Positions 28,927-47,269 are shown, counted from the stretch's first letter. The stretch: DNA of 64,000 nucleotides from Actinomycetes bacterium (GCA_009787085.1 WRGR01000044.1:81017-145016), one strand, 5' to 3'. The notes: generated by a model from the sequence alone, not told the origin. Program-made: numbers and translations.

Positions 28927-29261
28927 ACACCATCATCATTGTCACATACGATCACGAATACCTTACGGCATTATAACATTGGAAAGACCTTTGGTAGTAG
29001 ACCGGGCAAGAAAATTGCAGATTTTTCATAACAGGCATTCGTAGCCAAGGATCGTAGCCAAGGAGGAAGATTGCAAACCAAGCCAGTAATGGCAAATATC
29101 TGAAAATAGCTATGGACAAGCTCTTGGTCTTAAAATATAATACATATATTCCTTATATGTTTTTGTGCTTCATGGATCATCTGTCTTAACAACGCTGCAC
29201 GAAGGGCTTTAGGAGGTTTGCTATGCGAATGCGCTGAGGGAAGAACTCGGAGGGGCCACCG

Positions 29262-29336
29262 ATGTTTCCCGAATGTTTGACCGTATGTTTTATCAGATTC
29301 ACTAGAGACTGTACTGAAAGGAAAACACCGATATGA
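29262..29336 (+). promoter_or_regulatory. SD-preceded 24-codon upstream ORF (MFPECLTVCFIRFTRDCTERKTPI) coupled to cysP by an ATGA overlap
   Basis: GGAGGGG lies 6 nt before the ATG at 29262. There are three TGT Cys codons. The stop TGA (29334-29336) overlaps the cysP ATG (29333-29335). Confidence 0.35.
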
Positions 29337-30376: not shown

Positions 30377-30410
30377 AATCCAGCCGACCAGAGGACGAGA
30401 GGGTGAGCAG

Positions 30411-31262
30411 ATGCCCGGCCTGATGCGCATATTTAAACGGCGCAAGAATAACGTGATCCCCGGCTTCGGCCTGTCAATGGGAATTACGCTGACCATGCTC
30501 AGCCTGGTTGTGCTTATCCCTCTTGCCTCCGTGCTGCTGATTCTCAGTGACTACACTTTTGCACAGTTCTGGCAGGTGATAACAGATCCCAAGACTATAT
30601 CCACTTATCGGGTTAGCCTTGGCTGTGCCGCAATAGCTGCCTTGATCAATGTAGTTTTCGGGGTACTGTTGGCTTGGGTTTTGACCCGCTACAAATTCCC
30701 AGGCAGACGCATTCTGGACAGTTTGATCGAGCTGCCTTTCGCCCTGCCCACTGCTGTGGCTGGCATCGCCCTGACCACGCTTTACTCCGATAAGGGCTGG
30801 ATCGGCAGCCTGTTCGAGAAGATCGGCGTGAAGATCTCCTACACCACCGTCGGCATCACCATCGCCCTGATCTTCATTGGCATCCCCTTTGTGGTGCGCT
30901 CTATTCAGCCGGTGCTAGAGAGCCTTGACGCTGGTTATGAAGAGGCGGCATCCATCCTCGGAGCCAGCAAGGCCCGCATCTTCTTCCGCGTCGTCTTCCC
31001 AGAGATACTGCCGGCCGCCATGACTGGTTTTGCCCTAGCATTGGCCAGAGGCATCGGCGAGTACGGCAGCGTGGTGTTTATCGCCGGCAATATCCCTTAT
31101 GAGACGCAGATCACACCGCTGATTATCATGAACTTCCTAGAACAGTTCAACTATCCGGCAGCCACTTCAATTGCCTTGGTGATGATCGTCTTCTCGTTCG
31201 TCGTGCTGTTCGGGATCAACATCCTGCAGAGCAAGGTGAACAAGGTCGCCCGGGGGAGCTGA
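30411..31262 (+). CDS. cysT: sulfate ABC transporter permease
   Basis: Start taken at MPGLMRIF, after GAGGG (the ORF track extends upstream to 30315). Has the EAA-type loop EEAASILGASK. Confidence 0.9.
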   Translation: MPGLMRIFKRRKNNVIPGFGLSMGITLTMLSLVVLIPLASVLLILSDYTFAQFWQVITDPKTISTYRVSLGCAAIAALINVVFGVLLAWVLTRYKFPGRRILDSLIELPFALPTAVAGIALTTLYSDKGWIGSLFEKIGVKISYTTVGITIALIFIGIPFVVRSIQPVLESLDAGYEEAASILGASKARIFFRVVFPEILPAAMTGFALALARGIGEYGSVVFIAGNIPYETQITPLIIMNFLEQFNYPAATSIALVMIVFSFVVLFGINILQSKVNKVARGS

Positions 31263-31265
31263 GGC

Positions 31266-32075
31266 ATGCGCACAAAAGTAACCAAAGTCATTTTGATCAT
31301 CTTGGGCGGGCTGTTCATTGCCTCGATGCTGATCATGCCCTTGACCACTGTGTTGGTCTATGCCCTGCGTCAGGGACTAACCGTATTCACCTCGGCTATC
31401 ACCGATGACTACGCCATCAAAGCCCTGCAGCTGACCTTGTTGACCTGCTGTATCACTTTGCTGATAAACACCTTCTTCGGCGTGTTTGCGGCCTGGACCA
31501 TTACCAAGTTCCGCTTTCGGGGACGGCAGGTGCTGACCACGCTGATCGACATCCCCTTCTCCATCTCACCGGTAATAGCCGGCCTAGTTTTCATCTTGGT
31601 CTTCGGGCGCATTGGCTGGGCATACCCGTTGGTGGAGTCTTTGGACATCAATGTGGTGTTCGCCGTACCGGGAATTATACTTGCCACTACATTTGTCACC
31701 TTCCCTTTTGTCTCCCGCGAGCTTATCCCAGTGATGCAAGCCCAGGGCCGTGAGGAAGAAGAAGCAGCGGCTTTGATGGGTGCGAGAGGACTGCGGATCT
31801 TCCGCAAGGTCACTTTCCCGCACATCAAGTGGGGGCTGCTTTATGGGGTGATACTCTGCTCCGCCCGGGCGTTGGGCGAGTTCGGTGCAGTGTCGGTGGT
31901 TTCCGGCCATTTGCGGGGTAAGACCAACACTTTGCCGCTACATGTAGAGATACTCTTCAATGAGTTCAAAGTAACGGCCGCGTTTGCTGTGGCCTCGGTG
32001 CTGGTGGTTATCGCCGTCATCGTTTTGATCCTGCGCAATATCGTCGAATACCGGCTAAAGCGGGAGAAAGGCTAG
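31266..32075 (+). CDS. cysW: sulfate ABC transporter permease
   Basis: 269 aa with 6 TM helices and the EAA loop EEEAAALMGARGLRIF. Confidence 0.9.
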   Translation: MRTKVTKVILIILGGLFIASMLIMPLTTVLVYALRQGLTVFTSAITDDYAIKALQLTLLTCCITLLINTFFGVFAAWTITKFRFRGRQVLTTLIDIPFSISPVIAGLVFILVFGRIGWAYPLVESLDINVVFAVPGIILATTFVTFPFVSRELIPVMQAQGREEEEAAALMGARGLRIFRKVTFPHIKWGLLYGVILCSARALGEFGAVSVVSGHLRGKTNTLPLHVEILFNEFKVTAAFAVASVLVVIAVIVLILRNIVEYRLKREKG

Positions 32076-32077
32076 TC

Positions 32078-33136
32078 ATGTATGTCGAACTGAGAAATTT
32101 GAACAAGCAGTTCAATGGCTTTAAGGCCGCCGACAATGTCAGCTTCGGCATTGAGAGGGGCCATCTAGCCGGACTGCTTGGTCCATCCGGCAGTGGCAAG
32201 ACTACCATCCTGCGGATGCTGGCTGGGCTGGAGACTCCTGATTCCGGGGACATCCTGATCGATGGGAAAAGGGTCAACGACATTCCGGCTGCCCGACGCG
32301 GCATCGGCTTTGTTTTTCAAGACTATGCCCTCTTCCGCTATATGACGGTGTTCGGCAACATTGCCTTCGGTTTGACAGTGCAGAAAAAAGAGAAACGCTT
32401 CATCCAAGCCCGGGTGACCGAACTGATCAAGTTGATCGGCTTAGAGGGGCTGGAGAGGCGCCGACCGCACCAGCTTTCCGGCGGCCAGAAACAGCGAGTG
32501 GCCTTTGCCCGGGCGCTGGCACCCAACCCCCAGCTGCTGCTGTTGGACGAGCCCTTTGCGGCCATCGATGCCAAAGTACGCAAGGACCTGCGCTCTTGGC
32601 TGCGAGAAACCATTAACAAGGTTGGCGTGACCAGTATCTTCGTCACCCATGACCAGGATGAGGCAGTAGAGGTGGCAGACGAGATCGTCATCACCAACAG
32701 CGGTCGGATAGAACAGGTCGGCACACCGACGGATATCTACAAAAACCCGCAGACCCCCTTTGCCGCCGGCTTTATCGGCGAGTCCATTGTTGTCTCGGAC
32801 TATGGCCGTCTGCATGGTTTCCAAGCAACCGACGGCTTCGACCAAGCGGTGCTGCGCCCAGAATTCGTGCGAGCAGTGAAGCTTGAGAAAGAGGTCTTCC
32901 CCCATGCCTCCCAGCACGGGACAGTGCAGGAGGTCTACTTCCGGGGCAACGCCTTAGAGCTGCGCATCAACTTGGGCGGGCAGGTGGTCACCAGCCATCA
33001 GTCTTTGGAGGAAGAGGCCTTCAAAGTGGGAGAAGAAGTCAGCGTACTGATCTACCGGCTATACCTTTTGGGTCGCGACAGCGTTCGCCTGATGGAGAAC
33101 GCCTCCATTAAAAGCGATGGGAGCTTCTTTATCTGA
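32078..33136 (+). CDS. cysA: sulfate ABC transporter ATPase
   Basis: 352 aa with GPSGSGKTT, LSGGQKQRVAFARAL, LLLDEP and a C-terminal TOBE-like domain. Confidence 0.9.
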   Translation: MYVELRNLNKQFNGFKAADNVSFGIERGHLAGLLGPSGSGKTTILRMLAGLETPDSGDILIDGKRVNDIPAARRGIGFVFQDYALFRYMTVFGNIAFGLTVQKKEKRFIQARVTELIKLIGLEGLERRRPHQLSGGQKQRVAFARALAPNPQLLLLDEPFAAIDAKVRKDLRSWLRETINKVGVTSIFVTHDQDEAVEVADEIVITNSGRIEQVGTPTDIYKNPQTPFAAGFIGESIVVSDYGRLHGFQATDGFDQAVLRPEFVRAVKLEKEVFPHASQHGTVQEVYFRGNALELRINLGGQVVTSHQSLEEEAFKVGEEVSVLIYRLYLLGRDSVRLMENASIKSDGSFFI

Positions 33137-34824
33137 TGGAACTCAAAGTCGAGCATATCGAAACCGATTTCTTGGTTTTAGGTGGCGGTACTGCCGGCTG
33201 CTATGCCGCACTGACCTTCAGCGCCCGCTCGGCGGCCAAGGTGCTGATAGCCGAGAAGGCCAATATCAAGCGCAGCGGCTGCTTGGCGGCAGGGGTCAAC
33301 GCCCTCAACGCCTATATAACTACCGGCCACACGCCCCAGGACTATGTCGACTATGCCCGCACCGACGCTGCTGGCATCGTTCGTGGCGACTTGCTGATCA
33401 GCATGTCCCGTGGCCTGAACCGGGCAGCCCAGCGCTTGGAAGAGATCGGCCTGACCATCCAAAAGAACCCAGACGGCAGCTACATGGCTCGTGGCGAACG
33501 GAACATCAAGATCAACGGCGAGAACATCAAGCCCCTGTTGGCGGCAGCAGTTGCCAAGCCGCAGGTCACAGTGTTGGAACGGGTGGCCGCCTGCAGCTAC
33601 ATCATGGGGGCGGACAAGCGGGTGGCCGGTGCTTACCTGGTAGGAGTGGACGATCCAGTTCTCTATGTCATCAGCGCCCGCGCCGTGCTTTGTGCCACTG
33701 GCGGTGCTGCCGGGCTTTACCGTCCGAACAACCCGGGCTTCTCTGGCCATAAGATGTGGTACCCGCCCTTCAATACCGGGGCCGGCTTAGCCATGGGTAT
33801 CCAGGCCGGTGCCGAGATGACCTCCCTGGAGATGCGCTTCGTCGCCTTGCGCTGCAAAGACACCATTGCCCCCACCGGCACACTGGCACAGGGGATGGGG
33901 GCTAGACAGATCAACTCACTTGGCCGAGTTTATGAGCAAGACTATGGCCTCTCGACCTCAGCACGCCTGTATGGGACGATAACCGAGAACTTGGAGGGAC
34001 GCGGCCCTTGTTTTCTCCGCACAGTCGGAGCCACTTCGGAGCAGGATGCCGAGATCGAGAAGGCCTATCTGAACATGGCACCGTCGCAGACCCTGCGCTG
34101 GCTGGAGAGCGGATTGCCGCCCAGCCAGAAGAACGTGGAGATCGAGGGTACTGAACCCTATATTGTCGGCGGCCATACCGCGTCCGGCTATTGGGTGGAC
34201 ACCCATCGCGAAACCACGCTTAAATGCCTGTTTGCTGCTGGTGATGTGGCCGGCGGCTGTCCGCAAAAATATGTCACCGGTGCCTTGGCAGAAGCCGAGA
34301 TAGCCACCGAAGCGGCAATCAGCTACATGTCAGATGAGCTGAAACAAACAGATATCGAGCAAACACAGAGGATCAAGGTTTGGCTGGAGTCGCATCTGAT
34401 GCGCACGATGCCTGAAACTGGCGACACTGTTGACGGCTTGGAAGAAGAGATGCAGGCCCTAATGGATGAGCAGGCCGGAGGGATTACCAGCAATTATCAA
34501 TATTCACAAGCATCGCTGGAACAGGCGGCAGCGGGTATCTACAGTTTGAGCAAACGTGCCAAGGCACTTTCGGTACCAGACATGCCGGAGCTGACCTATC
34601 TCTTGGAGCTGCGCGAGCGTTTGATCGTCTGTCGCTCTTTGCTTGCCCACCTTGCTGCCCGCAAAGAGAGCCGTTGGCCGGGCTTTGCAAAACATGCCGA
34701 CTACCCCGAACAAGATGACAGTTTTCGGTGCTATGTCAATTCCAAACTGGAAGACGGTAAGGTCAAGGTGCTGTTTAGAGACTTAGTGGAGGAAGGTGAG
34801 GTTTATGAGCATCATGATCGATGA
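33136..34824 (+). CDS. aprA: adenylylsulfate (APS) reductase alpha-subunit-like flavoprotein
   Basis: 562 aa with FAD fold DFLVLGGGTAGCYAA. Overall resembles the AprA branch of the fumarate reductase/succinate dehydrogenase flavoprotein family. Context: between cysA and cysDN, followed by a small 2x[4Fe-4S] protein. Confidence 0.7.
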   Translation: MELKVEHIETDFLVLGGGTAGCYAALTFSARSAAKVLIAEKANIKRSGCLAAGVNALNAYITTGHTPQDYVDYARTDAAGIVRGDLLISMSRGLNRAAQRLEEIGLTIQKNPDGSYMARGERNIKINGENIKPLLAAAVAKPQVTVLERVAACSYIMGADKRVAGAYLVGVDDPVLYVISARAVLCATGGAAGLYRPNNPGFSGHKMWYPPFNTGAGLAMGIQAGAEMTSLEMRFVALRCKDTIAPTGTLAQGMGARQINSLGRVYEQDYGLSTSARLYGTITENLEGRGPCFLRTVGATSEQDAEIEKAYLNMAPSQTLRWLESGLPPSQKNVEIEGTEPYIVGGHTASGYWVDTHRETTLKCLFAAGDVAGGCPQKYVTGALAEAEIATEAAISYMSDELKQTDIEQTQRIKVWLESHLMRTMPETGDTVDGLEEEMQALMDEQAGGITSNYQYSQASLEQAAAGIYSLSKRAKALSVPDMPELTYLLELRERLIVCRSLLAHLAARKESRWPGFAKHADYPEQDDSFRCYVNSKLEDGKVKVLFRDLVEEGEVYEHHDR

Positions 34825-35119
34825 TGCCGCATGCAGGGGCTGTGGCAGATGCACTGCAGTTTGCCCCGGCAGCCTAATAAGCCTGAACAAAAACGGGAAG
34901 GCCTGGATACGCCGTCCGCAACGTTGCTGGGGATGCGCTTCTTGTGCCAAGGAATGCCCAGTTGAGGCTATCGCCCTCTACCTTGGTGCAGACATCGGTG
35001 GTGCGGGCGGGCGGATGACCGTGGCACAGGAAGGCTCCCAGCTGACTTGGACGCTACGGATGCCTGACGGCTGCGAGCAAAGCATCGTGGTCAACCTTCA
35101 AGATGCCAACAGCTATTGA
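34805..35119 (+). CDS. aprB: AprB-like small ferredoxin subunit
   Basis: 104 aa from the ATG at 34805 (MSIMIDD), with CRGCGRCTAVCP and CWGCASCAKECP. Overlaps aprA-like by 20 nt. Confidence 0.6.
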   Translation: MSIMIDDAACRGCGRCTAVCPGSLISLNKNGKAWIRRPQRCWGCASCAKECPVEAIALYLGADIGGAGGRMTVAQEGSQLTWTLRMPDGCEQSIVVNLQDANSY

Positions 35120-35142
35120 GCAGCTGCTGAGGAGACTAGCGA

Positions 35143-36039
35143 ATGTCGATGACACATTTAGACCGGCTGGAGGCTGAGGCCATCTATATCTTCCGTGAGG
35201 TCGCCGCCGAATGCGAGCGGCCAGTGATGCTTTACTCCATCGGCAAAGACAGCTCGGTGATGCTGCATTTGGCATTAAAGGCCTTTTATCCCGAAAAACC
35301 GCCCTTCCCTTTCTTGCATATCGATACCAGCTGGAAGTTCAAAGAGATGATCGCCTTCCGCGACCGCCGCGCCCAAGAGCTGGGTATCCGGATGCTGGTA
35401 TACCGCAACGAGAAGGCTTTGGCCGAAGGCATCAACCCCTTTGACCATGGAGCGGCCTACACCGATATCGTCAAAACCCAAGCCCTGAAGGATGCTCTCA
35501 CCGAGTACGGCTTCACAGCGGCATTCGGCGGCGGTCGCCGGGACGAGGAGAAGTCCCGTGCCAAAGAGCGGATATTCTCTTTCCGCAGCGCCAGCCATGC
35601 TTGGGATCCCAAAAACCAGCGTCCCGAAATGTGGAAGCTCTACAACACGCGCATCAACAAGGGCGAGAGTATGCGGGTCTTCCCCATCTCCAACTGGACA
35701 GAGGCAGATATCTGGCAGTATATCCGGCGCGAAGACATCCCTATTGTGCCACTTTACTTTGCGGCCGTCCGCCCAGTAGTGGAGCGCGACGGCAACATTA
35801 TCATGGTCGACGACGAGCGGTGCCGCCTTAGACCCGGAGAAACACCGCAGCTGGAGAAAGTGCGCTTCCGTACCTTGGGCTGTTATCCTTTGACTGGTGG
35901 GGTGAGGAGCGAGGCTGATACTTTGGACGCGGTGATCTCCGAAACCTTGGCCGCAGTGACCAGCGAGCGAACCAGCCGAGTGATCGATAACGAAGCATCA
36001 GGCAGCATGGAGCGCCGCAAACGGGAGGGCTACTTTTAA
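35143..36039 (+). CDS. cysD: sulfate adenylyltransferase subunit 2
   Basis: 298 aa with [24 protein letters not shown] (PP-loop) and [12 protein letters not shown]. Confidence 0.92.
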
Positions 36040-37652
36040 TGGGTGAGCCAAGCAACGGACTTTTGAAACTAATAACCTGTGGCAGTGTCGATGATGGCAA
36101 GTCGACGCTGATTGGGCATATCCTCTATGATGCCAAGTTGTTGTATGCAGACCAAGAGCAGGCCTTGATGCTGGATAGCCAAGTCGGCAACAGGGGCGGT
36201 AGCATCGATTATTCTTTGCTGCTGGACGGCCTGATGGCCGAGCGCGAACAGGGCATCACCATTGACGTGGCCTACCGCTACTTCACCACCGCTGCTCGCA
36301 GCTTCATCGTTGCCGACACGCCAGGACACGAGGAATACACTCGCAATATGGCGGTAGGTGCATCTTTTGCCGATTTAGCAGTGATACTGATCGATGCCAG
36401 CCAGGGTGTTTTGGCACAGACTCGCCGCCATGCCCGCATCTGCGCACTGATGGGTATCCGCTTCTTTGCCTTCGCAGTGAACAAGATGGACTTGATCGGC
36501 TATCAGCAACGGGCATTTCAAAGCGTCAGCGACGAGGTCGAAGCATTAGCCGCCGAGCTTGAGCTGCAAAACGTGGCGATCTTCCCAGTTTCAGCCACCG
36601 AAGGCGACAACGTCACTGTTGCCTCCCCAAATATGCCATGGTACAACGGCCAAACTTTGCTTGGCCACCTAGAGAGCGTCGATATCTCCGGTGCTGCCCC
36701 GGAAGTCGGCTTCTATCTGCCAATACAGCGGGTCAGCCGCCCTAACCAGAGCTTTCGGGGTTTTCAAGGGCAAATCGAGTGCGGCCAAGTGAAAGTGGGT
36801 GACACGCTCACAGCGCTGCCTTCCGGGCAGATGGCACTGGTCAAGGCGGTCTTTATCGGTGAACGAGCAATGCAGGCCGCTGCGGCCGGGCAGGCTGTGA
36901 CCGTCCAACTAGACCGCGAGGTCGATGTTTCCCGGGGCTGCGTGCTGGAAAGAAACTCCGGTCTGAGAATCGCCAAGGAATTCCTAGCCACGCTGCTTTG
37001 GATGGACGACCAAGACTTGGTCAGCGGCAAGGATTACTGGGTCAAAGTTGGCACTAAGCTACTGCCAGCCATTGTTACCGGCATCCGCCACAAAGTGGAC
37101 ATCAACAACGGCAAGCTGCTTCCGGTCGACTCCGTGGCCAAAAACGAGATCGTGCTTTGCGAAGTCGTGCTTTCGGAGCCGGTCGTTCTCGATGCGTTCA
37201 GGCTACATAAAACACTGGGCGAGCTGATCCTGATCGACAGGGTGAGCCACGCCACTTCGGCCTGTGGCGTGATCGAGAGCGTCGGGGAAGACGACGATGG
37301 TGGCGTATTGTTGCAAGATGGTGGCCTAAAGCTGCATATTCAGCTATTTGACAGCTTTTACTATCATCCAGATATCCATACTGTATTGCGTCATAGTCCA
37401 CCGCCAGTCACTTATTTCAAGGGCGATACCCTCCCCTTGCAGTCAGTCGGCTATTGTTACCCGTCAGACTTCGACTTGGTGGGCAACAATTTGACCGCCA
37501 ACATCCGCCAGTCCAAGTTTATCGGCTTCGCTGCTCCAAGCTTAGACCTACCGCTGTTGGACGCGAACGGCTTAGAGCTGGGGGCTGGTCAACCCCGTGA
37601 CTTTGGTAAATATCGGCGTGTATCGGTTTGGGAGACGGACTATGAGATTTAA
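36039..37652 (+). CDS. cysN: sulfate adenylyltransferase subunit 1 (GTPase) with an uncharacterised ~100-aa C-terminal tail
   Basis: 537 aa with GSVDDGKST, DTPGHEEY and NKMD G-motifs. The tail carries no APS-kinase P-loop. Confidence 0.9.
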   Translation: MGEPSNGLLKLITCGSVDDGKSTLIGHILYDAKLLYADQEQALMLDSQVGNRGGSIDYSLLLDGLMAEREQGITIDVAYRYFTTAARSFIVADTPGHEEYTRNMAVGASFADLAVILIDASQGVLAQTRRHARICALMGIRFFAFAVNKMDLIGYQQRAFQSVSDEVEALAAELELQNVAIFPVSATEGDNVTVASPNMPWYNGQTLLGHLESVDISGAAPEVGFYLPIQRVSRPNQSFRGFQGQIECGQVKVGDTLTALPSGQMALVKAVFIGERAMQAAAAGQAVTVQLDREVDVSRGCVLERNSGLRIAKEFLATLLWMDDQDLVSGKDYWVKVGTKLLPAIVTGIRHKVDINNGKLLPVDSVAKNEIVLCEVVLSEPVVLDAFRLHKTLGELILIDRVSHATSACGVIESVGEDDDGGVLLQDGGLKLHIQLFDSFYYHPDIHTVLRHSPPPVTYFKGDTLPLQSVGYCYPSDFDLVGNNLTANIRQSKFIGFAAPSLDLPLLDANGLELGAGQPRDFGKYRRVSVWETDYEI

Positions 37653-38880
37653 CACCAAGCTCTTGCATGGGAAATTCCCGTCTGACTGGAGCGGCTCAAC
37701 GTTGCCGCCTATCTATCAGGTGTCGGCCTTTGCCCATGAATCAGCAGAGAGGCTGGAAAAGGTATTTTTGAACAAGGAGCCGGGGTTTGCCTACACTCGC
37801 ATTGCCAACCCCACAGTCGCTGCCTTTGAGCGGCGAATGGCACTGCTGGAGGGCGGCATGGATGCCGTCAGCTGCTCTTCCGGTATGGCAGCGGTGTCTA
37901 TGGCCTTGTTGAATATCTTGTCTACCGGCGACGAGATCATCTCCAGCAGCAGCCTTTTTGGCGGTACGTTCGGGCTGCTTGCCAATTTCGAGCAATTCGG
38001 CCTCCACACCAACTATCTCAGCGAGCTCAATGCCGAGACAGTGGAGGCAGCGTTGACACCGCATACCAAGGTTATCTTCGCCGAGCTTATCGGCAACCCC
38101 AAGCTGGATGTAGTCGATATCCGTGAGCTGGCATACGTCGCTGAAAGGCATGGTCTGCCCTTGGTGATCGATGCCACTACTGCCACCCCGGCGCTGGTCC
38201 GCCCCTTGGAGCAAGGCGCCCACATCGTTGTACACTCCTCATCCAAGTACATCAACGGCAGTGGCGATGCCATTTCCGGCGTTATCGTCGACGGCGGCCG
38301 CTTCGATTGGGACTTTGAGAAATACCCGGCCTTGGCCGGCTACCAGCAGATGGGTAAGTTCGCCTTCACCGCTCGCCTACGCCAAGATATTTGGCGGAAC
38401 TTCGGTGCCTGCCTAGCTCCCCAAAACGCTTGGCTGAACTGCGTTGGCTTGGAGACCTTGGGGCTGCGGATGGAAAGACTCTGCAAAAACTCACTGGCAC
38501 TGGCCGAGCATATCGAGCAAAACCTAGGCATGGCAGTCAACTACCCGGGCTTAAAAAGCAACTCATACCATGCTCTGATCGCCAAGCAAATGGACGATGG
38601 CTTGGGCGGAGCCATCCTAACGCTGCGTACCGGCTCCAAAAAACGGGCATTCAGCCTGATTGATAACCTCAGATATGCCAAGATCGCCACCAATATCGGT
38701 GATGTGCGCACTTTGGTACTTCATCCTGCCTCGACCATTTATGCCCATTCCGACGAGCAGACCATGCAACTATCAGGAGTTTATGACGATCTTGTGCGTA
38801 TCAGCGTCGGGCTGGAGGACATCGAGGACCTGATCGAAGATTTCACTTTGGCTTCTATTGTAATGAACGGAGACAGATAG
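37642..38880 (+). CDS. metY: O-acetylhomoserine (thiol)-lyase family PLP enzyme
   Basis: Start at MRFNTKLLHG (the track ORF begins at 37597). AYTRIANPT, and the PLP lysine in HSSSKYINGSGD. Overlaps cysN by 11 nt. Confidence 0.85.
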   Translation: MRFNTKLLHGKFPSDWSGSTLPPIYQVSAFAHESAERLEKVFLNKEPGFAYTRIANPTVAAFERRMALLEGGMDAVSCSSGMAAVSMALLNILSTGDEIISSSSLFGGTFGLLANFEQFGLHTNYLSELNAETVEAALTPHTKVIFAELIGNPKLDVVDIRELAYVAERHGLPLVIDATTATPALVRPLEQGAHIVVHSSSKYINGSGDAISGVIVDGGRFDWDFEKYPALAGYQQMGKFAFTARLRQDIWRNFGACLAPQNAWLNCVGLETLGLRMERLCKNSLALAEHIEQNLGMAVNYPGLKSNSYHALIAKQMDDGLGGAILTLRTGSKKRAFSLIDNLRYAKIATNIGDVRTLVLHPASTIYAHSDEQTMQLSGVYDDLVRISVGLEDIEDLIEDFTLASIVMNGDR

Positions 38881-38881
38881 C

Positions 38882-39745
38882 ATGGAAACCGACTATAAAT
38901 CCCTGAAAGAGGGCGGCTTTATGCGCCAAGTGCAGAAGAATAACTTTTCTGCACGCATCAAGGTAGTAGGCGGCAGGCTGACGGCCGAGCAGCTCGTTGC
39001 CATTTCGGCGATAGCGCGCAAATATGGAGCCGGTCATGTGCACCTGACCTCGCGGCAAAGCGTGGAGATCCCCTTTGTCAAACTGAAGGACGTGCCGGCA
39101 GTGAGGGCCGATCTAGAGGCCGGCGGCCTGAAGTCCAGCGTTTGTGGCCCGCGGGTGCGCACCGTCACCGCTTGCCAAGGCAGCGAGATCTGCCCGTCCG
39201 GATGCATTGACACCTACCCGTTAGCACTGGCTATCTCTGAGCGTTACTTCGGGCGGCAGCTGGTCCACAAGTTCAAGTTCGGGGTGACCGGTTGCATGAA
39301 CAACTGCCTGAAGGCCGAGGAGAACGATATGGGCATCAAAGGCGGCTATATTGTGGAATGGCTGCCCGAGCAATGCAATCTCTGCGGTGTCTGCATCAAG
39401 GCCTGTCGTGAGGGGGCGCTCGCTCAAACCGATAGCGAGGTTCTGATCGATCAGGAGAAATGCAACAACTGCGGCCGCTGCGTCAAAGCCTGCCCCTTCG
39501 ATGCCTGGCACGGCGAGGCGGGCTACATACTATCCTTTGGCGGTATTTTCGGCAACCGGATTGCTGTTGGCCAGCAGCTTTTGCCCATCATCAGTGACGA
39601 GCAGACCTTGTTTCGGGTGGCCGATGCCGTGCTGGCCTTTTTCGATGAACACGCCGAGGCTTGTGAACGCTTCCGCTCGGCAATCGACCGGGTGGGCTGG
39701 GATGTTTTCCAAGCCGCAGTGGAGGGAGCTTACCATGGCCGATAG
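38882..39745 (+). CDS. small siroheme-type sulfite reductase with an inserted 2x[4Fe-4S] ferredoxin domain
   Basis: 287 aa with siroheme-cluster motifs C-x5-C (CQGSEIC) and C-x3-C (CMNNC), plus CNLCGVCIKAC and CNNCGRCVKACP. Confidence 0.75.
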   Translation: METDYKSLKEGGFMRQVQKNNFSARIKVVGGRLTAEQLVAISAIARKYGAGHVHLTSRQSVEIPFVKLKDVPAVRADLEAGGLKSSVCGPRVRTVTACQGSEICPSGCIDTYPLALAISERYFGRQLVHKFKFGVTGCMNNCLKAEENDMGIKGGYIVEWLPEQCNLCGVCIKACREGALAQTDSEVLIDQEKCNNCGRCVKACPFDAWHGEAGYILSFGGIFGNRIAVGQQLLPIISDEQTLFRVADAVLAFFDEHAEACERFRSAIDRVGWDVFQAAVEGAYHGR

Positions 39746-39992
39746 GGTTGAGTTTGCGATAGACGAGACGGTAGACATCACCGACGTGGTTTGCCCAGTG
39801 ACCTTCGTCAAGGCCAAGGTAGCCTTGGAAGAGCTGGATGCCGGGCAGATCCTGGCCATCCGCTTAAGCGATGGCGAGCCGGTGGTCAATGTACCCCGAA
39901 GCCTCAAAGACGAGGGGCATCAGGTGTTGAAGCTAGCTGACAACTGTGACGGTACTTATACATTGCTAGTAAGAAGAATGGAGGAAGATTAG
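39735..39992 (+). CDS. TusA/SirA-like sulfur-carrier protein
   Basis: 85 aa from the ATG at 39735, with active-site-like DVVCPVTFVKAK near the N-terminus. Overlaps the reductase gene by 11 nt. Confidence 0.7.
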   Translation: MADRVEFAIDETVDITDVVCPVTFVKAKVALEELDAGQILAIRLSDGEPVVNVPRSLKDEGHQVLKLADNCDGTYTLLVRRMEED

Positions 39993-40199
39993 ATGAAACT
40001 AACTGTAGCGGGTAATTTAAAAGAATTTGCGGACGGTCTGACCGTGGCCAAGCTGATCGAACTGGAACAGGTGGAGACTCCGGAGTACATCACCGTTTCG
40101 GTAAACGATGAGTTTATTGCCAGCGACTCCTTTGAGTCCCATGTTTTGGCCGATGGTGATGCTGTGGAGTTCTTGTATTTCATGGGCGGCGGCCGCTGA
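39993..40199 (+). CDS. ThiS/MoaD-family ubiquitin-like sulfur carrier ending ..FMGGGR
   Basis: 68 aa with beta-grasp length and pattern (..DGDAVEFLYFMGGGR). The stop overlaps the ATG of the E1-like gene (TGATG). Confidence 0.75.
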   Translation: MKLTVAGNLKEFADGLTVAKLIELEQVETPEYITVSVNDEFIASDSFESHVLADGDAVEFLYFMGGGR

Positions 40200-41011
40200 T
40201 GGCCTTCAGCAACGAGCAGCTGGAGCGCTACTCCCGCCACATTATCTTAAAAGAGGTCGGTGCCAAGGGGCAAAAGAAGCTGCAAGCAGCCAAGGTACTG
40301 ATCATCGGAGCAGGCGGCCTCGGGGCACCGGCAGCACTCTACCTAGCTGCTGCCGGTGTGGGCACGATCGGCATTGCCGATGCTGACGCGGTAGACCTCT
40401 CCAACCTGCAACGCCAAGTGATCCACGCCACGCCGGACATCGGCAAGGCCAAGGTGTGCTCGGCCAAGCAAAGCATGCAGGCCATCAACCCCGAGGTGCA
40501 GGTCAACACCTACCAATGCTTCGTGACGGCCGCCAACGTCATGGAGCTTGTCGCCGACTACGACTTCGTATTGGACGGTACCGACAACTTTCCGGCCAAG
40601 TTCCTGATCAACGATGCCTGTGTGCTATCTGCCAAGCCCTTCAGCCACGCCGGCATTATCCGCTTCCAAGGTCAGCTGATGACTTACGTGCCCGGCCAGG
40701 GGCCCTGCTATCGCTGTGCCTTTCAAAACCCACCGCCAGCTGATGCCGTACCCACTTGCCGCCAGGCCGGGGTTATCGGTGCCATGGGCGGGGTAATAGG
40801 CTCGTTGCAGGCCATGGAAGCAGTGAAGTACATCATCGGCCAAGGCGATCTGCTCTGCGGCTCCCTGCTGACCTTTGATGCTCTGAAGATGGAGTTCCGC
40901 AAAATCAAGCTGCCGCGCCGCGACACCTGTGCCGTCTGCGGCAGCCAACCCACCATCTTGGCAGCGTTTGACTACAAGCAGGCAGCTTGCGACCTGAAGC
41001 CTGCGACCTGA
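40199..41011 (+). CDS. ThiF/MoeB/HesA-family E1-like adenylyltransferase
   Basis: 270 aa with RYSRHIIL, GAGGLGAP nucleotide loop and two CxxC pairs (CYRC, CAVC). No rhodanese domain. Confidence 0.85.
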   Translation: MAFSNEQLERYSRHIILKEVGAKGQKKLQAAKVLIIGAGGLGAPAALYLAAAGVGTIGIADADAVDLSNLQRQVIHATPDIGKAKVCSAKQSMQAINPEVQVNTYQCFVTAANVMELVADYDFVLDGTDNFPAKFLINDACVLSAKPFSHAGIIRFQGQLMTYVPGQGPCYRCAFQNPPPADAVPTCRQAGVIGAMGGVIGSLQAMEAVKYIIGQGDLLCGSLLTFDALKMEFRKIKLPRRDTCAVCGSQPTILAAFDYKQAACDLKPAT

Positions 41012-41085
41012 GAGGCGGCCATTGAAGTCAGTGTGGCCAGCAACCTGCGCTTCAGAAGCCCATAACCCGAGAGGCGGTTTGTAAG

Positions 41086-41583
41086 GTGAAACTGCAGATC
41101 AAGCAATGTGATATCGATACTATCATCGCCCACGCCCAAGCTGAACTGCCCAATGAAGCCTGCGGCTTGGTGGCTGGCCGGGTGGATGCTGGTGGTAAGG
41201 CCAGGGGCGGTAATGTGAGTGTCAAGGGTGGATATGCGGAGGCCAAGGGCAGGGGCGCCGAGGCCGACACAGACGGGTTTTTTGTGGTGGAGAAAGTCTA
41301 TCTGCTCTCCAACATTGACCAAAGCCACGAGCACTTCTCCATCGACCCCAAAGAGCAGTTGGCGGCCATCAAAGACATGCGATCCTTGGGGCTTGCCCCC
41401 TTGGGCAACTTCCATTCCCACCCGGAAACACCAGCCCGCCCCTCCGAAGAGGACATCCGCCTCGCCCATGACCGCAACGCCGTCTATCTGATAGTGTCTC
41501 TAGCAGCAGAGCAGCCAGTCTTGAAAGCCTTCCGCGTGATCGACGGAGTAGCCTCAGCAGTGGCGGTGGAGGTTTTGGGCTGA
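41086..41583 (+). CDS. JAMM/MPN+ metalloprotease (Mec+/HcyD-like)
   Basis: 165 aa, GTG start. It has the full JAMM signature: E (NEACG) ... HSHPETPARPSEED (HxH-x7-S-xx-D). A Gly/Ala/Lys-rich ~35-aa insertion follows the Glu. Confidence 0.8.
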   Translation: MKLQIKQCDIDTIIAHAQAELPNEACGLVAGRVDAGGKARGGNVSVKGGYAEAKGRGAEADTDGFFVVEKVYLLSNIDQSHEHFSIDPKEQLAAIKDMRSLGLAPLGNFHSHPETPARPSEEDIRLAHDRNAVYLIVSLAAEQPVLKAFRVIDGVASAVAVEVLG

Positions 41584-41919
41584 AACTGGGTGAGCGCTGA
41601 ACTAAGGTAAAAACCCGGTCGATCCTTTCAATTTCCCTATTTCGATGCCCATGCTTTCTCCTCCGATCAGAGCCTATTCAGCAGTTTCGTTATTTGCCGC
41701 CGCTCCCGAGCGACCTATTCATCAATCTCGGTACTACGTAGTTCAGCTTCCTATAATCAAGTGCGGCGATTTCCCAATAGCAGGTGCAATAAAATTTGTT
41801 AATTTTGTGCTTCTTTGTATATTGGAATAGATTGATTATTTGTTTCTTGAGCGGTTCAATGGTTTTTACCTCCCGGTACTGCTTCGCAACAAGCGACTAT
41901 AGCTACAGCCGCTTTCTGC

Positions 41920-43254
41920 TTATCCTAGTCTTTTTGACCAGCAGCAGCTCTTGGCCTTTTTGCCGCTGCCGCAGGGACAGGGGTCGTTGCGACCTACTCC
42001 TTGCCATCTTGCCGCCATTTGGGTGCGGCAGTTGGCCATTATCGCTGCTAGCGACCGGCCACGTCTGGCCTCTGTGCTGATCGCTTGGAGCAGTGGCTGG
42101 ACGTGAGAGAAGAAACGCCGCAAGCCGCCACAGAGGTAGTTCAGGCCGGGCCGGCCGTCGTCTGCTAGGCTGAAGCGGTCTTTAGGACAGGCACCGTTGC
42201 AAACCTTAAGCCATGGACAAACGCGGCATTGCTTAGGCAGCGAGTCATGCTTGTTCTTGCCGAAGCCGACTTGCTGGGCTGAGTCCACCAGTTCCACCAG
42301 CTCCGAGCTTTGGATATCGCCCAGCCGATGCTCAGGGTTCACGTAGTGGTCGCAGGAGTAGATGCCGCCGTCGGCCTCTAAGACCAAGGCACGGCCACAT
42401 CGTGGTGCCATCCAGCAGAGGCCGGCACTGCCGCCCGACCAAACACGTGCCGTCTCGGCAAACAGCTGGATGTCCAACTTGCCTAGATCGTGGCATGCCC
42501 ATTCATCGAACACGGTGCATAGGAACTCGCCGTAGCCCTCGCTGCTGACACTTTCCTCAGCTAGGCTGCCATCGCTTTCCCTGCGGACAATCGGGATGAA
42601 CTGGATCCAGCCGGTATCCAAGTTGCGTAGTGCCCGATAAACACCCAAAGGATCGTTGACCGAAGCCGAGCTCACCGTGCAGAGCAGGTCGGGGTGAACA
42701 CCATGTGTCCGCAGACGTTTGGCAGCATCGACGACTTGCTGATAGCTGCCCTTGCCATTGCGGTCCAGCCGGTTACGGTCATGCACCAGTTGGCTGCCGT
42801 CGATGCTCAGCCCAACGTCAAAATGAGCATCGGCCAAAAAGCCGCACCACTCGTCATCAAGAAGCAAGCCGTTGGTCTGGAGGTTGTTCCAGCACGTCCA
42901 ACCTTCGGGAAGGTATTGCTGTTGCAGCCCAACTGCCCGCCGGTAGAAGTCCAGCCCGGCCAAAGTCGGCTCACCGCCATGCCAGACAAAGTTCAGCTCG
43001 GGGCCCGGACTGGCCTGGACGTACTGGCAGACAAAGCGCTCCAACAGCTCATCGCTGATCCGTGGCTGCGAAGCAGCATCTGGCTCCCCAACATCCTTCA
43101 AATAGTAACAATAGCTACAGCAAAGGTTACAGCGCGCTCCCACCGGCTTGGCCATTATCGAGAAGGGTTCGACCGATTTCTTGGACAACAGCAACGGCGA
43201 CGACACAGGCGACGGCGCAACCGACGACGATGCGGGTGGCTGGACAGACAGCAC
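41920..43254 (-). CDS. anaerobic sulfatase-maturating enzyme (radical SAM/SPASM) with a C-terminal SEC-C motif
   Basis: 444 aa with CNLCCSYC radical-SAM triad, HGGEPTLAG, LQTNG, DGGIYSCDHYV, CRVCPWLKVCNGACP and LNYLCGG. The tail is NDPCPCGSGKKAKSCC. Confidence 0.85.
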   Translation of the reverse strand: MLSVQPPASSSVAPSPVSSPLLLSKKSVEPFSIMAKPVGARCNLCCSYCYYLKDVGEPDAASQPRISDELLERFVCQYVQASPGPELNFVWHGGEPTLAGLDFYRRAVGLQQQYLPEGWTCWNNLQTNGLLLDDEWCGFLADAHFDVGLSIDGSQLVHDRNRLDRNGKGSYQQVVDAAKRLRTHGVHPDLLCTVSSASVNDPLGVYRALRNLDTGWIQFIPIVRRESDGSLAEESVSSEGYGEFLCTVFDEWACHDLGKLDIQLFAETARVWSGGSAGLCWMAPRCGRALVLEADGGIYSCDHYVNPEHRLGDIQSSELVELVDSAQQVGFGKNKHDSLPKQCRVCPWLKVCNGACPKDRFSLADDGRPGLNYLCGGLRRFFSHVQPLLQAISTEARRGRSLAAIMANCRTQMAARWQGVGRNDPCPCGSGKKAKSCCWSKRLG

Positions 43255-44104: not shown

Positions 44105-44836
44105 CTACTGCACCCTCCCGCCAGCCTGCTCACGCAAAGTCAGGATATGCGCCGAATACTCCAAGCAAGAAACCAGCCGCAGGGCGTTTTGCAGGCTGTC
44201 GGCCATGGCAAACGGCCCATGGCCACGGATGACAGCCAGTGAGCCGCCGCCACTGACCAGCTCGGCCATCATGGTGGCTACCTCATCGGCGGCCACTGTC
44301 TGCTGTGGACTAAGTACTGGCACCGCTGCTCCTAAGACCAGCTTGCCCTCGGAATCCAAAGGTGTCAATGCGTCCCGCGACAGCGACTGGAAAACAGTGT
44401 ACAGGCTATGGGAGTGCAGCACTGCCCGAACTCCAAAGTCTTCCCCTTGCTTAGTCAAGCGCTCGGTTAAGGCATGGTACATGGCACGATGCACCTTCAG
44501 CTCCATGGAGGCAGCGGCGGCCACATCGGCATCAGAGGCTTGCCACGGTACTTGAACCACGTCGCTCGGATGGATATGGGCGAGCTGGGCGGCAGTGCGG
44601 GTAATCCAAATCCGTGAGCCGTCGCTGACTGAAAGGTTGCCGCCGTGGCTGGTGACCGCACCGGAGACGAAGAGGTCGCGGCCAACCTCGCGGAAGTCTT
44701 TTATCCGCATTACTGAGTCGGCAGCGCCTTTGGCGGCATCAGCCGCTTCCCTAGCGGCTGTGGAGACCCCACTGGCGGCGGCGCTCACCCCGTCCAGAAG
44801 ATCCCTCTTGAACTGCTCGAAGCCGTATTCTGGCAT
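44105..44836 (-). CDS. class II aldolase/adducin-family protein with a ~45-aa Ala-rich N-terminal extension
   Basis: 243 aa with SHGGNLS, metal-binding HSHS and RGHG motifs. Confidence 0.8.
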   Translation of the reverse strand: MPEYGFEQFKRDLLDGVSAAASGVSTAAREAADAAKGAADSVMRIKDFREVGRDLFVSGAVTSHGGNLSVSDGSRIWITRTAAQLAHIHPSDVVQVPWQASDADVAAAASMELKVHRAMYHALTERLTKQGEDFGVRAVLHSHSLYTVFQSLSRDALTPLDSEGKLVLGAAVPVLSPQQTVAADEVATMMAELVSGGGSLAVIRGHGPFAMADSLQNALRLVSCLEYSAHILTLREQAGGRVQ

Positions 44837-44977
44837 GATTGAACGGCACCTCCCTTGGCTGCGTCGATCCTTGATATGCGATAATCATATAGCCTTAGTT
44901 GCCGGAGCACAAACCGGATATCCAAATCTTCATCAAGCGGAAACAGAAACGACAAGAGGACTGAAGAGCTAGCTACC

Positions 44978-47269
44978 ATGCAGACACCTGAGAATCAAAG
45001 CCAGAACAGCAGTGCTTGCTGCGAAAAGCCGGTCGGCGACCGTCAAAACGGTGCGAAGGCCGGGAACTTGTTGGATCATTCAGCGGGAAAAGAACCTGTC
45101 CCCTGCCCTACGACAGCAGCAACACCCCAGCCCCGACCGGAGTGGCCGTCCCGAGCGGTGGTTACTGCCGGCATGCCCTATGGCAACAAGGGTCTGCATT
45201 TCGGGCACGTCGGTGGAGTGTTCGTGCCAGCCGACGTCTATGCCCGCTTCTTACGCGACCGCATCGGGCCGGCCAATGTGCTGTTCGTCAGCGGCACCGA
45301 CTGCTATGGCTCACCGATCGACGAAGGCTATCGCAAACTGGTGGAAAACGAGGGTTTTACAGGCAGTATCGCCGACTACGTAAAGGCCAATCAGTGTGCT
45401 CAGGCAGCCAGCCTGGCGGCTTTCGACATCTCGCTGGACATCTACCAGGGCAGCGGCATGGACGAATCCGGGGAGTGCCATCGCACCCTTTCCGATGAAC
45501 TGCTACGGCGGCTCTACGATTGTGGCCACCTGCAACTGTTGGGCACCGACCAGTTCTACGACGATGCGGCCATGAGCTTCTTGAACGGTCGTCAAGTTGT
45601 CGGTCATTGCCCCGTTCAGGGCTGCCGTTCGGAGCATGCTTGGGCGGATGAATGCGACCTCGGCCACCAGTACCAGCCCTCAGAGCTGATCAACCCGGTA
45701 AGTACGCTCACCGGCAGCCGTCCATCGATGCGCCGGGTAGAGAACTGGTATTTCGACCTGCCGGAGTTCAAAGGCCTACTCGACAACTACATCGAGCAGT
45801 TGATGTGCGACAACGTCACCCGCAAGCTGGTTCCGGAGACTATGGCGGAGTTCTTAGTGCCGCCGATCATCTACCTGAAAGATGAGCTGCTTGACGACTA
45901 CCAAGCACTGAGCTCGACACTGCCACAGCACCGCTACCGTCCAACACCACAGGGCAAGGCCAGCTTCGAGCTGGAGTTTGACTGTATTGCCGACCGCGAC
46001 CAAGCACGTTCTTTGTTGGACGCTGCCGGGCTGCGCTACCGCAGCGGCAAAGCGTTGACCCCCTTCCGCATCACCGGCAACATCGACTGGGGCGTTCCTG
46101 CTCCGGACCTCGACCACAGCGGCAGGGCGCTGACCATTTGGTGCTGGCCAGAATCGCTATGGGCGCCGATCAGCTTCACCCAGGCGGCGCTGAGGCGGGC
46201 GGCAGCAGCCGGCATAGCCGGGAGCACGACAGCGGTTGATGCTGGTAATGACGCAGCTGATGCTGAAGCGGCGGCGGCCGAGGCAGTCGGGGCCGGAAGC
46301 CAAGCTACTGCGACGGCCCGGGCGACCGCAGCGCCGCTTGAATGGCCGGATTTCTGGTGCGACGACACAGCCCGGGTCTACCAGTTCATCGGCCAAGACA
46401 ACATCTACTTCTATGGGGTGGTGCAGACTGCGCTCTGGGAGGCGTTGGCCGCGCTGGACGACTTCGATCTGGCCAACCCCTTGGGAACGCTCAAGCAGAC
46501 ACATTTGATAGCCAACCACCACCTGCTCTTCTTGGACAAGAAGGCCTCGTCTTCTGGCACACTGAAGCCACCACTGGCCGAAGAGCTGCTCGAATACTAC
46601 CGTGCCGAACAGCTGCGTGCCCATTTTGTTTCCCTGGGCTTGGGGATGAAGGCCGTTAACTTCCGTCCAAAGCCCTTGAACCCGAAGGCCGCTGCCAAGG
46701 ATTCTGACCCAGTGCTGAAAGACGGACAGGTGCTGACAGGGATCTTGAACCGTTTGGCCCGCTCCTGTTTTTATGCCGTCCAAAACGAGTTCGGCGGGCA
46801 GATGCCCCTAGGCGAGATCAGCCCCGAAGTCGGCAACTGGGCACAAGAGGCAGTGCGGCTCTACGAGCAGGCCATGTTCCTAACTGAGCTGCACTTGGCC
46901 AGCTCAGCAGCCGCTGATTTGATCCGTAGAGCCAACAAGCATTGGTCGGAGCACAGCCGCAGCTGCGAGACTGGCAGTGCCGAGCGGCGACAGTTGCTCA
47001 TCGATTGCTTTTACCTGCTGCGAGTCTGCTTACTGCTGGAGCACCCCATCGCCCCTAGGGGCTCGGCCAAAGCCTTCGAGTACTTCGCTTTGTCCTGCAC
47101 GGAGGCTGAGTTCTTCAGTTGGGAGCATGTCGATGCCAGCTGCCGTCCTGCCGGCTTTGAGGCTTTTGTTGATGCCGATGCAAAAGCCCGCGCCAGCCAT
47201 AGCCTACGCGAGCTTTTGCCACGTACCGATTTCTTCGAGTGCCATCCCAGCCAGTTCGCCAAGTCGTGA
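44978..47269 (+). CDS. class I aminoacyl-tRNA synthetase, methionyl-tRNA-synthetase-like (divergent)
   Basis: 763 aa with MPYGNKGLHFGH (HIGH region), a CP-domain knuckle HCPVQGC..DECDLGH and FIGQDNIYFYG. The KMSKS position reads KASSS. Confidence 0.65.
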   Translation: MQTPENQSQNSSACCEKPVGDRQNGAKAGNLLDHSAGKEPVPCPTTAATPQPRPEWPSRAVVTAGMPYGNKGLHFGHVGGVFVPADVYARFLRDRIGPANVLFVSGTDCYGSPIDEGYRKLVENEGFTGSIADYVKANQCAQAASLAAFDISLDIYQGSGMDESGECHRTLSDELLRRLYDCGHLQLLGTDQFYDDAAMSFLNGRQVVGHCPVQGCRSEHAWADECDLGHQYQPSELINPVSTLTGSRPSMRRVENWYFDLPEFKGLLDNYIEQLMCDNVTRKLVPETMAEFLVPPIIYLKDELLDDYQALSSTLPQHRYRPTPQGKASFELEFDCIADRDQARSLLDAAGLRYRSGKALTPFRITGNIDWGVPAPDLDHSGRALTIWCWPESLWAPISFTQAALRRAAAAGIAGSTTAVDAGNDAADAEAAAAEAVGAGSQATATARATAAPLEWPDFWCDDTARVYQFIGQDNIYFYGVVQTALWEALAALDDFDLANPLGTLKQTHLIANHHLLFLDKKASSSGTLKPPLAEELLEYYRAEQLRAHFVSLGLGMKAVNFRPKPLNPKAAAKDSDPVLKDGQVLTGILNRLARSCFYAVQNEFGGQMPLGEISPEVGNWAQEAVRLYEQAMFLTELHLASSAAADLIRRANKHWSEHSRSCETGSAERRQLLIDCFYLLRVCLLLEHPIAPRGSAKAFEYFALSCTEAEFFSWEHVDASCRPAGFEAFVDADAKARASHSLRELLPRTDFFECHPSQFAKS

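Follow-up and report, generated by a model that had tools for sequence, protein, structure and literature searches.

In a 64,000-nucleotide stretch of DNA from an Actinomycetes bacterium (GCA_009787085.1, WRGR01000044.1:81017–145016; referred to here as the window), we identified six consecutive genes, read directly from the sequence on the + strand at positions 37642–41583: metY, sir, tusA, thiS, thiF and a gene for a JAMM protease, the order given by an earlier reading of the same DNA (the original prediction). They encode a 412-amino-acid (aa) pyridoxal phosphate (PLP)-dependent O-acetylhomoserine sulfhydrylase, MetY (37642–38880; Pfam Cys_Met_Meta_PP, 346 bits); a 287-aa small siroheme sulfite reductase, Sir, with an inserted 2×[4Fe–4S] ferredoxin domain (38882–39745; NIR_SIR_ferr, NIR_SIR and two Fer4 matches); an 85-aa TusA/SirA-like sulfur-relay protein with Cys20-Pro21 at its active site (39735–39992; Pfam TusA, 68 bits); a 68-aa HcyS-like sulfur carrier of the ThiS family that ends in EFLYFMGGG and an arginine cap (39993–40199; Pfam ThiS, 43 bits); a 270-aa HcyF-like E1 adenylyltransferase of the ThiF/MoeB type that has no rhodanese domain (40199–41011; Pfam ThiF, 276 bits); and a 165-aa HcyD-like JAMM/MPN+ zinc metalloprotease with a GTG start (41086–41583; Prok-JAB, 84 bits). 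All six proteins score above the Pfam gathering scores, including those of the four families (ThiS, ThiF, Prok-JAB and TusA) for which profile searches had been proposed. The genes close, at its 3′ end, a sulfate-assimilation operon of 14 genes (29333–41583) that runs cysPTWA, aprAB-like, cysDN and then the six-gene module, and that is co-directional and tightly packed throughout, as judged from profile matches and the list of open reading frames (ORFs). We infer every chemical step, as well as the role of TusA, the steps by analogy with the HcyS/HcyF/HcyD/MetY/Sir system of Wolinella succinogenes; on this basis, the six genes probably form the sulfur-incorporation end of one sulfate-to-homocysteine operon that uses a protein-thiocarboxylate route.

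The six genes are translationally coupled. The cysN stop (37652) and the metY ATG (37642) overlap by 11 nucleotides (nt), a 1-nt gap separates the metY stop (38880) from the sir ATG (38882), the sir stop (39745) and the tusA ATG (39735) again overlap by 11 nt, the tusA stop (39992) and the thiS ATG (39993) abut with a gap of 0 nt, and a TGATG at 40197–40201 holds the thiS stop and the thiF start together, as had been noted. From the thiF stop (41011) to the GTG of the JAMM gene (41086) there is a gap of 74 nt, with a Shine–Dalgarno-like GAGAGG 11 nt upstream of the GTG. What had been missed is that the module closes a complete operon for sulfate uptake and reduction, and that this type of operon is widespread.

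Scanning a single genome per species, we found the carrier subfamily in at least 592 species genomes. We mapped the 14 proteins of the window onto 80 related loci, 52 of which have at least 5 kb of flanking sequence upstream and 3 kb downstream. In these well-flanked loci, the E1 and the JAMM protease are always present beside the carrier (52/52 each), TusA is present in 50 and MetY in 44, and Sir and cysD are found in 27 and 16, respectively. The order aprAB–cysDN–metY–sir–tusA–thiS–thiF–jamm recurs in Bacillota genomes (loci L005, L010, L040, L070 and L077), and L008 shows the same gene order until its contig ends after thiF. This arrangement is far beyond chance. MetY stays beside the carrier also in variants that lack Sir; this links the carrier with MetY and not with sulfate reduction in itself.

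The carrier is 68 aa long and ends FMGGGR, as reported, with one residue past the Gly-Gly: the terminal Gly-Gly of the ThiS profile falls on G66-G67, which leaves R68 as a one-residue cap. Among the 120 best of 458 homologues found, EFLYFMGGG is invariant and is followed in every case (120/120) by a tail of 1–36 variable residues, the first of which may be Q, R, A, S, E, T or others; none of the 120 stops at GGG. Genuine ThiS proteins stop at the aligned Gly-Gly (…VGGG in Bacillus subtilis and …AGG in Escherichia coli). A universal variable tail behind an invariant EFLYFMGGG is therefore the signature of an obligatorily processed ubiquitin-like precursor, and a capped carrier and a co-encoded JAMM protease with an intact site would match one another. 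The nearest solved relative of the carrier (2k5p/3cwi, named ‘ThiS’; 51 bits), which we take to be a Geobacter metallireducens protein in the case of 2k5p, has FLYFMGGGK at the end of the aligned region. A few carriers (P0090, P0100 and P0105) have tails of 30–36 aa after GGG, and two of these tails end in …EGGTI or …IGGSI, like a second, degenerate Gly-Gly terminus.

Names and scores could also place the carrier in cofactor synthesis, with the ThiS- and ThiF-like genes as ordinary thiamine-thiazole genes that lie beside sulfur assimilation for sulfur supply only. The carrier exceeds the cut-off of the TIGR01683 ‘thiS’ equivalog (56.5 against 37.45 bits), the E1 reaches 269.6 bits on TIGR02356 ThiF, just under the cut-off of 275, and public sources call homologues ‘sulfur carrier protein ThiS’. 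We nevertheless consider this very improbable. The genes called in the operon and its flanks include no thiG, thiH, thiO, thiE or thiC, and the carrier is capped and accompanied by a JAMM protein in every case, features that a thiamine ThiS does not require. Its conserved partners are MetY and TusA, and genomes with such operons hold separate thiamine operons (Iyer et al., PMC1779556). A MoaD–MoeB–MoaE molybdopterin synthase, which the original prediction had named as a counter-reading, was examined and rejected: the operon contains no MoaE, and the only NCBIfam match of the carrier is the ThiS equivalog.

The active site of the JAMM protease is complete, as first described, with E24 followed by H110-S-H112-x7-S120-x2-D123, all in invariant alignment columns. 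Its AlphaFold model (predicted local distance difference test (pLDDT) score, 85) has as best folds DSY2949 of Desulfitobacterium hafniense (2kks) and Pyrococcus furiosus JAMM1 with SAMP2 (5lda). The match to 2kks is 127 bits, with a fold template-modelling score of 0.74–0.83. Superposition on JAMM1 bound to SAMP2 is one of several observations that could suggest a ubiquitin-like conjugation system of the SAMP/UbaA/JAMM1 or TtuB kind, in which the JAMM protein would be a deconjugase, possibly besides sulfur carriage; archaeal SAMPs and Thermus TtuB do have dual functions (PMC6225789). Along its whole length, the E1 also reaches 319.7 bits on ‘SAMP-activating enzyme E1 UbaA’, and the JAMM protein reaches 69.1 bits on ‘desampylase’, although both scores are well under the equivalog cut-offs of 450 and 130. 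Given that no E2 or target-specifying gene is found among the called genes, and that the fixed metabolic context (MetY, TusA, Sir and the sulfate genes) speaks for biosynthesis, conjugation is highly unlikely to be the role of the trio, though it may be a side function.

The JAMM protease of the window carries a Gly/Ala-rich insertion in its β2–β3 hairpin (residues 39–66; 41200–41283, + strand). The original prediction had recognized it, at a length of about 35 aa, and had listed it among the additions of this system; it is 28 aa long and, among the homologues compared, peculiar to this protein. It is absent from 77 syntenic homologues and from 119 database homologues (all 119 of the others listed are 136–150 aa long), and from 2kks, and we ruled it out as a family feature. 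The region is predicted to be disordered (pLDDT below 50 over residues 37–59). Its DNA contains an imperfect 24-nt direct repeat (41186–41209 and 41234–41257, 75% identical), which suggests a local duplication. The most plausible reading is an expansion of a loop that is private to this lineage, and nothing points to a function for it. The JAMM homologue of locus L040 (Hungatella sp. UBA5982), obtained by six-frame extraction, appears disrupted or masked near HxH, where an X residue precedes divergent sequence; an artefact of assembly or masking is the probable cause.

The E1 aligns over its full length to E. coli MoeB (1jw9) and ThiF (1zfn). Its GxGxxG motif (G37/39/42) is invariant, C187 is kept in 77 of 77 aligned homologues, and among the zinc cysteines C170 and C173 are conserved in 78 of 78, with C244 and C247 each a cysteine in 75. 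The rhodanese-bearing profiles PRK08762 and MoeZ match over the E1 part only. The protein also passes the broad MoeB subfamily model NF004281 (296 against a cut-off of 266) because the E1 core is shared. Beyond this MoeB-like core, we observed a conserved tail, P-T-I-x-x-L-x-D-Y-E-Q-x-x-C (residues 251–264; window 40949–40990), in which D258, Y259 and Cys264 are invariant in 78 homologues; the UbaA profile reaches Cys264 (aligned to residue 265), and the MoeZ profile alignment ends at residue 261. That Cys264 accepts sulfur from TusA is speculation. A route of the CysO/CysM type to cysteine was rejected, the PLP enzyme being of the MetY type and the E1 lacking rhodanese.

Weak PADLOC matches, in which the E1 fits the E1 portion of ‘E1-E2’ models (at most 58.6 bits) and the JAMM protein fits ‘JAB’ models (at most 25 bits), might point to an anti-phage system that combines an E1, a JAB protease and a ubiquitin-like protein, of the Bil type or the Cap2–Cap3 type of the cyclic-oligonucleotide-based anti-phage signalling system (CBASS). 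The probability of this is close to nil. The E1 match covers a generic E1 Rossmann region (for example, query residues 26–155 against 282–411 of 523), that of the JAMM protein is limited to the generic JAB core, the carrier and TusA have no PADLOC match, no E2 domain, effector or cyclase is encoded, and the context is a sulfate-assimilation operon.

TusA had been presented as an addition that this locus makes to the known pathway. This view does not hold: neighbourhoods of this type ‘always contain a SirA’ (Iyer, Burroughs and Aravind 2006, PMC1779556), consistent with the near-constant presence of TusA reported above. Its Cys20-Pro21 is invariant in 71 of 71 homologues. As TusA is nearly universal and Sir is optional, TusA is more likely to be a partner of the E1 and the carrier than of Sir. 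The same authors, who noted that the E1 of these neighbourhoods ‘always lacks’ rhodanese, proposed that TusA/SirA replaces the absent domain (PMC1779556).

Sir is of the minimal type, with the ferredoxin inserted. Among solved structures, it is best matched by the sulfite-reductase half of the F420-dependent enzyme Fsr (7np8, residues 342–610), and both the siroheme/[4Fe–4S] motifs (C-x5-C and C-x3-C) and the two ferredoxin motifs are invariant among 42 homologues. MetY has its best PDB matches among MetY enzymes, and its PLP lysine, K202, is kept in 58 of 59 aligned cluster homologues, the other one having a gap there.

The eight genes upstream of the module, all on the + strand, begin with a transporter: a 347-aa cysP-like sulfate-binding protein (29333–30376; Pfam SBP_bac_11, 134 bits) that is syntenic with cysTWA in related loci, cysT-like and cysW-like ABC permeases (BPD_transp_1) of 283 aa (30411–31262 by the public gene call; the ORF could begin at 30315) and 269 aa (31266–32075), and a 352-aa cysA-like ABC ATPase (32078–33136; ABC_tran and TOBE_2). 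These are followed by a 562-aa AprA-like flavoprotein, the alpha subunit of an adenosine phosphosulfate (APS) reductase (33136–34824; NCBIfam NF005331 ‘adenylyl-sulfate reductase subunit alpha’, 810.8 bits against a cut-off of 557), and a short AprB-like 2×[4Fe–4S] ferredoxin (34796–35119, with an alternative ATG start at 34805; Fer4 families). The latter is unusually short, at 107 aa, and scores 55 bits on TIGR02060 aprB, under the cut-off of 135.65; its gene always comes after aprA in related loci. The AprA-like and AprB-like pair accompanies cysDN in many of these loci. The ATP sulfurylase consists of a 298-aa small subunit, CysD (35143–36039; NF009214, 514.5 bits against a cut-off of 413), and a 537-aa GTPase subunit, CysN (36039–37652; TIGR02034, 509 bits against a cut-off of 336, over residues 9–412).

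CysN has a C-terminal extension of approximately 105–125 aa (residues 413–537; window 37275–37652) where an APS-kinase domain would stand. The extension has no Pfam match, is 57–64% conserved in the closest operon relatives and weakly in others, and gave an uninformative single-sequence AlphaFold model (pLDDT 32.6). CysN matches the bifunctional CysN/APS-kinase model NF004035 over the CysN part only (positions 22–433 of 632), and the operon contains no APS-kinase (adenylylsulfate kinase) domain. The encoded route is therefore from sulfate to APS, then to sulfite and to sulfide.

Domain identities, intact catalytic residues, translational coupling, a universally capped carrier and conserved synteny are all observed, and they suggest the following scheme. 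CysPTWA would import sulfate, CysDN would form APS, the AprAB-like reductase would convert APS directly to sulfite and the small Fsr-type siroheme reductase would take sulfite to sulfide. The carrier would be made as a capped precursor (…GGG-R), from which the JAMM protease would cut the cap to expose the Gly-Gly carboxylate. The rhodanese-less E1 would adenylate this carboxylate, and sulfur would displace AMP to give the carrier thiocarboxylate (carrier-COSH), with either the free sulfide made by Sir or a persulfide on Cys20 of TusA as the donor; TusA would stand in for the missing rhodanese domain. MetY would then join the carrier thiocarboxylate to O-acetylhomoserine, and an S-to-N acyl shift followed by JAMM hydrolysis of carrier-homocysteine would yield homocysteine and recycled carrier. 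The 17.6 kb of called genes contain no gene for ThiG, ThiH, MoaE, CysM or an E2.

The original prediction had proposed that the locus follows Wolinella-type logic for the insertion of sulfur into methionine. The core of this proposal held up in the available in silico tests; its last step, use of the carrier thiocarboxylate by this MetY, we infer from context. Several observations weigh against the scheme at this point. MetY scores 401 bits on TIGR01326, under the cut-off of 495, and the sulfide-using Thermotoga maritima MetY (7kb0, 324 bits) outranks that of W. succinogenes (3ri6, 265 bits); MetY is nearer to sulfide-using enzymes than to 3ri6, and its sulfur donor is therefore not readable from sequence. 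The neighbouring sulfite reductase could in principle feed free sulfide to ordinary direct sulfhydrylation. Finally, neither metX/metA, for O-acetylhomoserine synthesis, nor metE/metH, for methylation, was located in the 64-kb window.

These points lead to the most serious rival, in which MetY uses free sulfide made by Sir, and the carrier, E1, JAMM protease and TusA supply sulfur to a different acceptor, for instance a thio-cofactor, tRNA thiolation or cysteine by way of a bifunctional O-acetylserine/O-acetylhomoserine (OAS/OAH) sulfhydrylase. MetY is most similar to the sulfide-using enzymes 7kb0 and 8sf5, TIGR01326 takes in bifunctional OAH/OAS sulfhydrylases, and many related loci pair the carrier set with an encapsulated cysteine desulfurase (see below) and not with Sir, so that both source and sink may vary. 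However, MetY is the only sulfur-accepting biosynthetic enzyme kept beside the carrier (in 44 of the 52 well-flanked loci), the operon encodes no other acceptor enzyme, and metY through the E1 gene are translationally coupled. There is also the precedent of Wolinella, in which MetY is able to use a carrier thiocarboxylate (PMC8191291) and is recognized as a user of protein thiocarboxylate (PMC8191291 and PMC6271081). We therefore rate the free-sulfide alternative as unlikely and favour transfer of sulfur to O-acetylhomoserine from the carrier.

In 28 of the 80 related loci, the thiS–thiF–jamm–tusA core adjoins four other genes (for example, L016:4870–12593 in Lachnospiraceae bacterium KH1P17), which encode the shell of a Family 2A encapsulin that resembles SrpI, a cysteine desulfurase whose N terminus carries a long extension, a hexapeptide acyltransferase and a 484-aa fusion of ThiS-like, ThiF and rhodanese parts. 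Among the taxa with this linkage are Lachnospiraceae, Fibrobacter, Succinivibrionaceae and, as metagenome-assembled genomes, Planctomycetales and Bacteroides. The SrpI paper leaves open the destination of the sulfur of the encapsulated desulfurase and does not mention ThiS or ThiF (PMC8049743), and the fate of Family 2A encapsulin sulfur is given as alternative models only (Nichols et al. 2021). The linkage may indicate an acceptor pathway for this sulfur.

A more far-reaching reading brings TusA, the encapsulin loci and the origin of the operon together; we offer it tentatively, as a possibility that is doubtful in its entirety. TusA would be an obligatory relay that replaces the rhodanese domain and passes the persulfide on Cys20 to the E1-bound carrier acyl-adenylate, so that free sulfide need not accumulate. 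The sulfur would come from the product of the sulfite reductase in the window, or from the encapsulin-packaged cysteine desulfurase in the variants of Lachnospiraceae, Fibrobacter and Succinivibrionaceae, and the whole operon would have been gained from Clostridia by a Coriobacteriia host. If the TusA relay is real, the encapsulin linkage in the 28 loci marks the downstream acceptor of Family 2A encapsulin sulfur; if the combined reading is true, acquisition of the operon gave the Coriobacteriia host a capacity to convert sulfate to methionine.

The host is of the Coriobacteriia type, as the original prediction had surmised: UvrB of the window is 77–80% identical to proteins of Coriobacteriales, Raoultibacter and Adlercreutzia. 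The operon proteins are nearest to Bacillota homologues (CysD up to 90%, E1 84% and carrier 82–84% identity), and the only one of the 80 loci that comes from Coriobacteriia (Collinsella sp., L030) is less similar, at 47–74%. Because the host UvrB is of Coriobacteriia and the closest relatives of the operon are in Clostridia, sequence similarity makes lateral acquisition of the operon from Clostridia likely. The operon is absent beside coaE–uvrB in Raoultibacter timonensis, which is weak evidence from one distant relative. A tRNA-Leu(CAA) gene (28203–28286) lies upstream of the operon; its position next to an operon that was probably transferred may indicate a site of integration.

Between this tRNA and cysP are a strong terminator with a 14-bp stem (28401–28432), just upstream of the operon, and a minus-strand DUF5684 gene (28465–28926). 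A candidate operon promoter, TGGACA-17-TATAAT, matches the consensus at 11 of 12 positions approximately 190 nt upstream of cysP (29113–29141, + strand); the count of promoter-like sites in the region equals the shuffle expectation, and this site rests on its consensus match only. No riboswitch or leader was found upstream of cysP or inside the operon: Rfam at the gathering threshold returned the tRNA-Leu only, and a permissive Rfam scan gave sub-threshold matches only, mostly on the terminator hairpin. No terminator-like site was found 3′ of the JAMM gene (+ strand, 41584–42500), where a minus-strand gene converges on the end of the operon. It encodes a 444-aa radical-SAM/SPASM protein with a C-terminal SEC-C motif (41920–43254) that resembles an anaerobic sulfatase-maturase.

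Farther out, a 243-aa protein of the class II aldolase family (minus strand) adjoins a long, 763-aa methionyl-tRNA synthetase at 44105–47269; the synthetase is extended at its N terminus and contains an Ala-rich insertion, and the aldolase family also takes in the methionine-salvage protein MtnB. Positions 22001–26000 have a lower GC content (0.50–0.52, against about 0.57–0.60 elsewhere), and in this lower-GC stretch a gene for a DUF2130 coiled-coil protein (23461–24828, minus strand) adjoins one for a molybdopterin oxidoreductase (20518–22950).

The value of these results lies mainly in annotation and metabolic reconstruction. In November 2017, the pathway was in neither MetaCyc nor KEGG, and UniProt mis-annotated its proteins (Price et al. 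2018, PMC5764234). In public sources, the carrier goes under the name ‘ThiS’, the protease is labelled ‘M67 metallopeptidase’ or ‘proteasome lid subunit RPN8/RPN11’, and MoeB models give the E1 its best scores; a thiocarboxylate route to homocysteine would therefore escape automated reconstructions. The organism of the window and at least 592 other species probably form homocysteine from sulfate by way of a protein thiocarboxylate. As for the part that TusA plays, the short AprB-like ferredoxin, the C-terminal extension of CysN and the encapsulin link in related loci, these are modest questions rather than surprises.

The closest counterpart is the HcyS/HcyF/HcyD/MetY/Sir pathway, a protein-thiocarboxylate route to methionine in W. 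succinogenes that was reportedly described by Krishnamoorthy and Begley in 2011. Both loci have a capped carrier of the ThiS family (the residue after the Gly-Gly is Arg here and, we presume, Ala in Wolinella HcyS), a JAMM protease, a ThiF-type E1, MetY and a sulfite reductase, with sulfate-activation genes in one cluster. The operon of the window differs in its AprAB-like APS reduction without an APS kinase, its small Fsr-type Sir and its Coriobacteriia host, and the Wolinella MetY (3ri6) is a homologue of the MetY found here, not its closest relative (265 bits, compared with 324 for the T. maritima enzyme).

Each of the two loci either appears in, or agrees with, type 4e of Iyer et al. (PMC1779556), a listing that includes Wolinella, G. 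metallireducens, D. hafniense and several Clostridia and for which lateral spread was suggested. Every component listed for type 4e except adenylylsulfate kinase is present in the operon of the window, which shares the patchy phyletic spread and suspected lateral transfer of the type; it departs from type 4e in its AprAB-like APS reductase, the missing adenylylsulfate kinase and the C-terminal extension of CysN, and the lineages named in 2006 did not include Coriobacteriia (PMC1779556). The closest solved relatives of the carrier (2k5p/3cwi) and of the JAMM protease (2kks) are both functionally unannotated; the presence of G. metallireducens and D. hafniense in the type 4e listing fits these structures (PMC1779556).

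The CysO/MoeZ/Mec+/CysM system of Mycobacterium tuberculosis is similar in that an E1 forms a carrier thiocarboxylate, a PLP enzyme uses it and a JAMM protease frees the amino acid. In contrast to that system, the PLP enzyme here is of the gamma family (MetY, Cys_Met_Meta_PP), the E1 lacks rhodanese, TusA is present and the expected product is homocysteine, not cysteine. The locus is an ordinary, widespread member of a kind of operon that was described bioinformatically in 2006 and biochemically in 2011, and its biology is not new.

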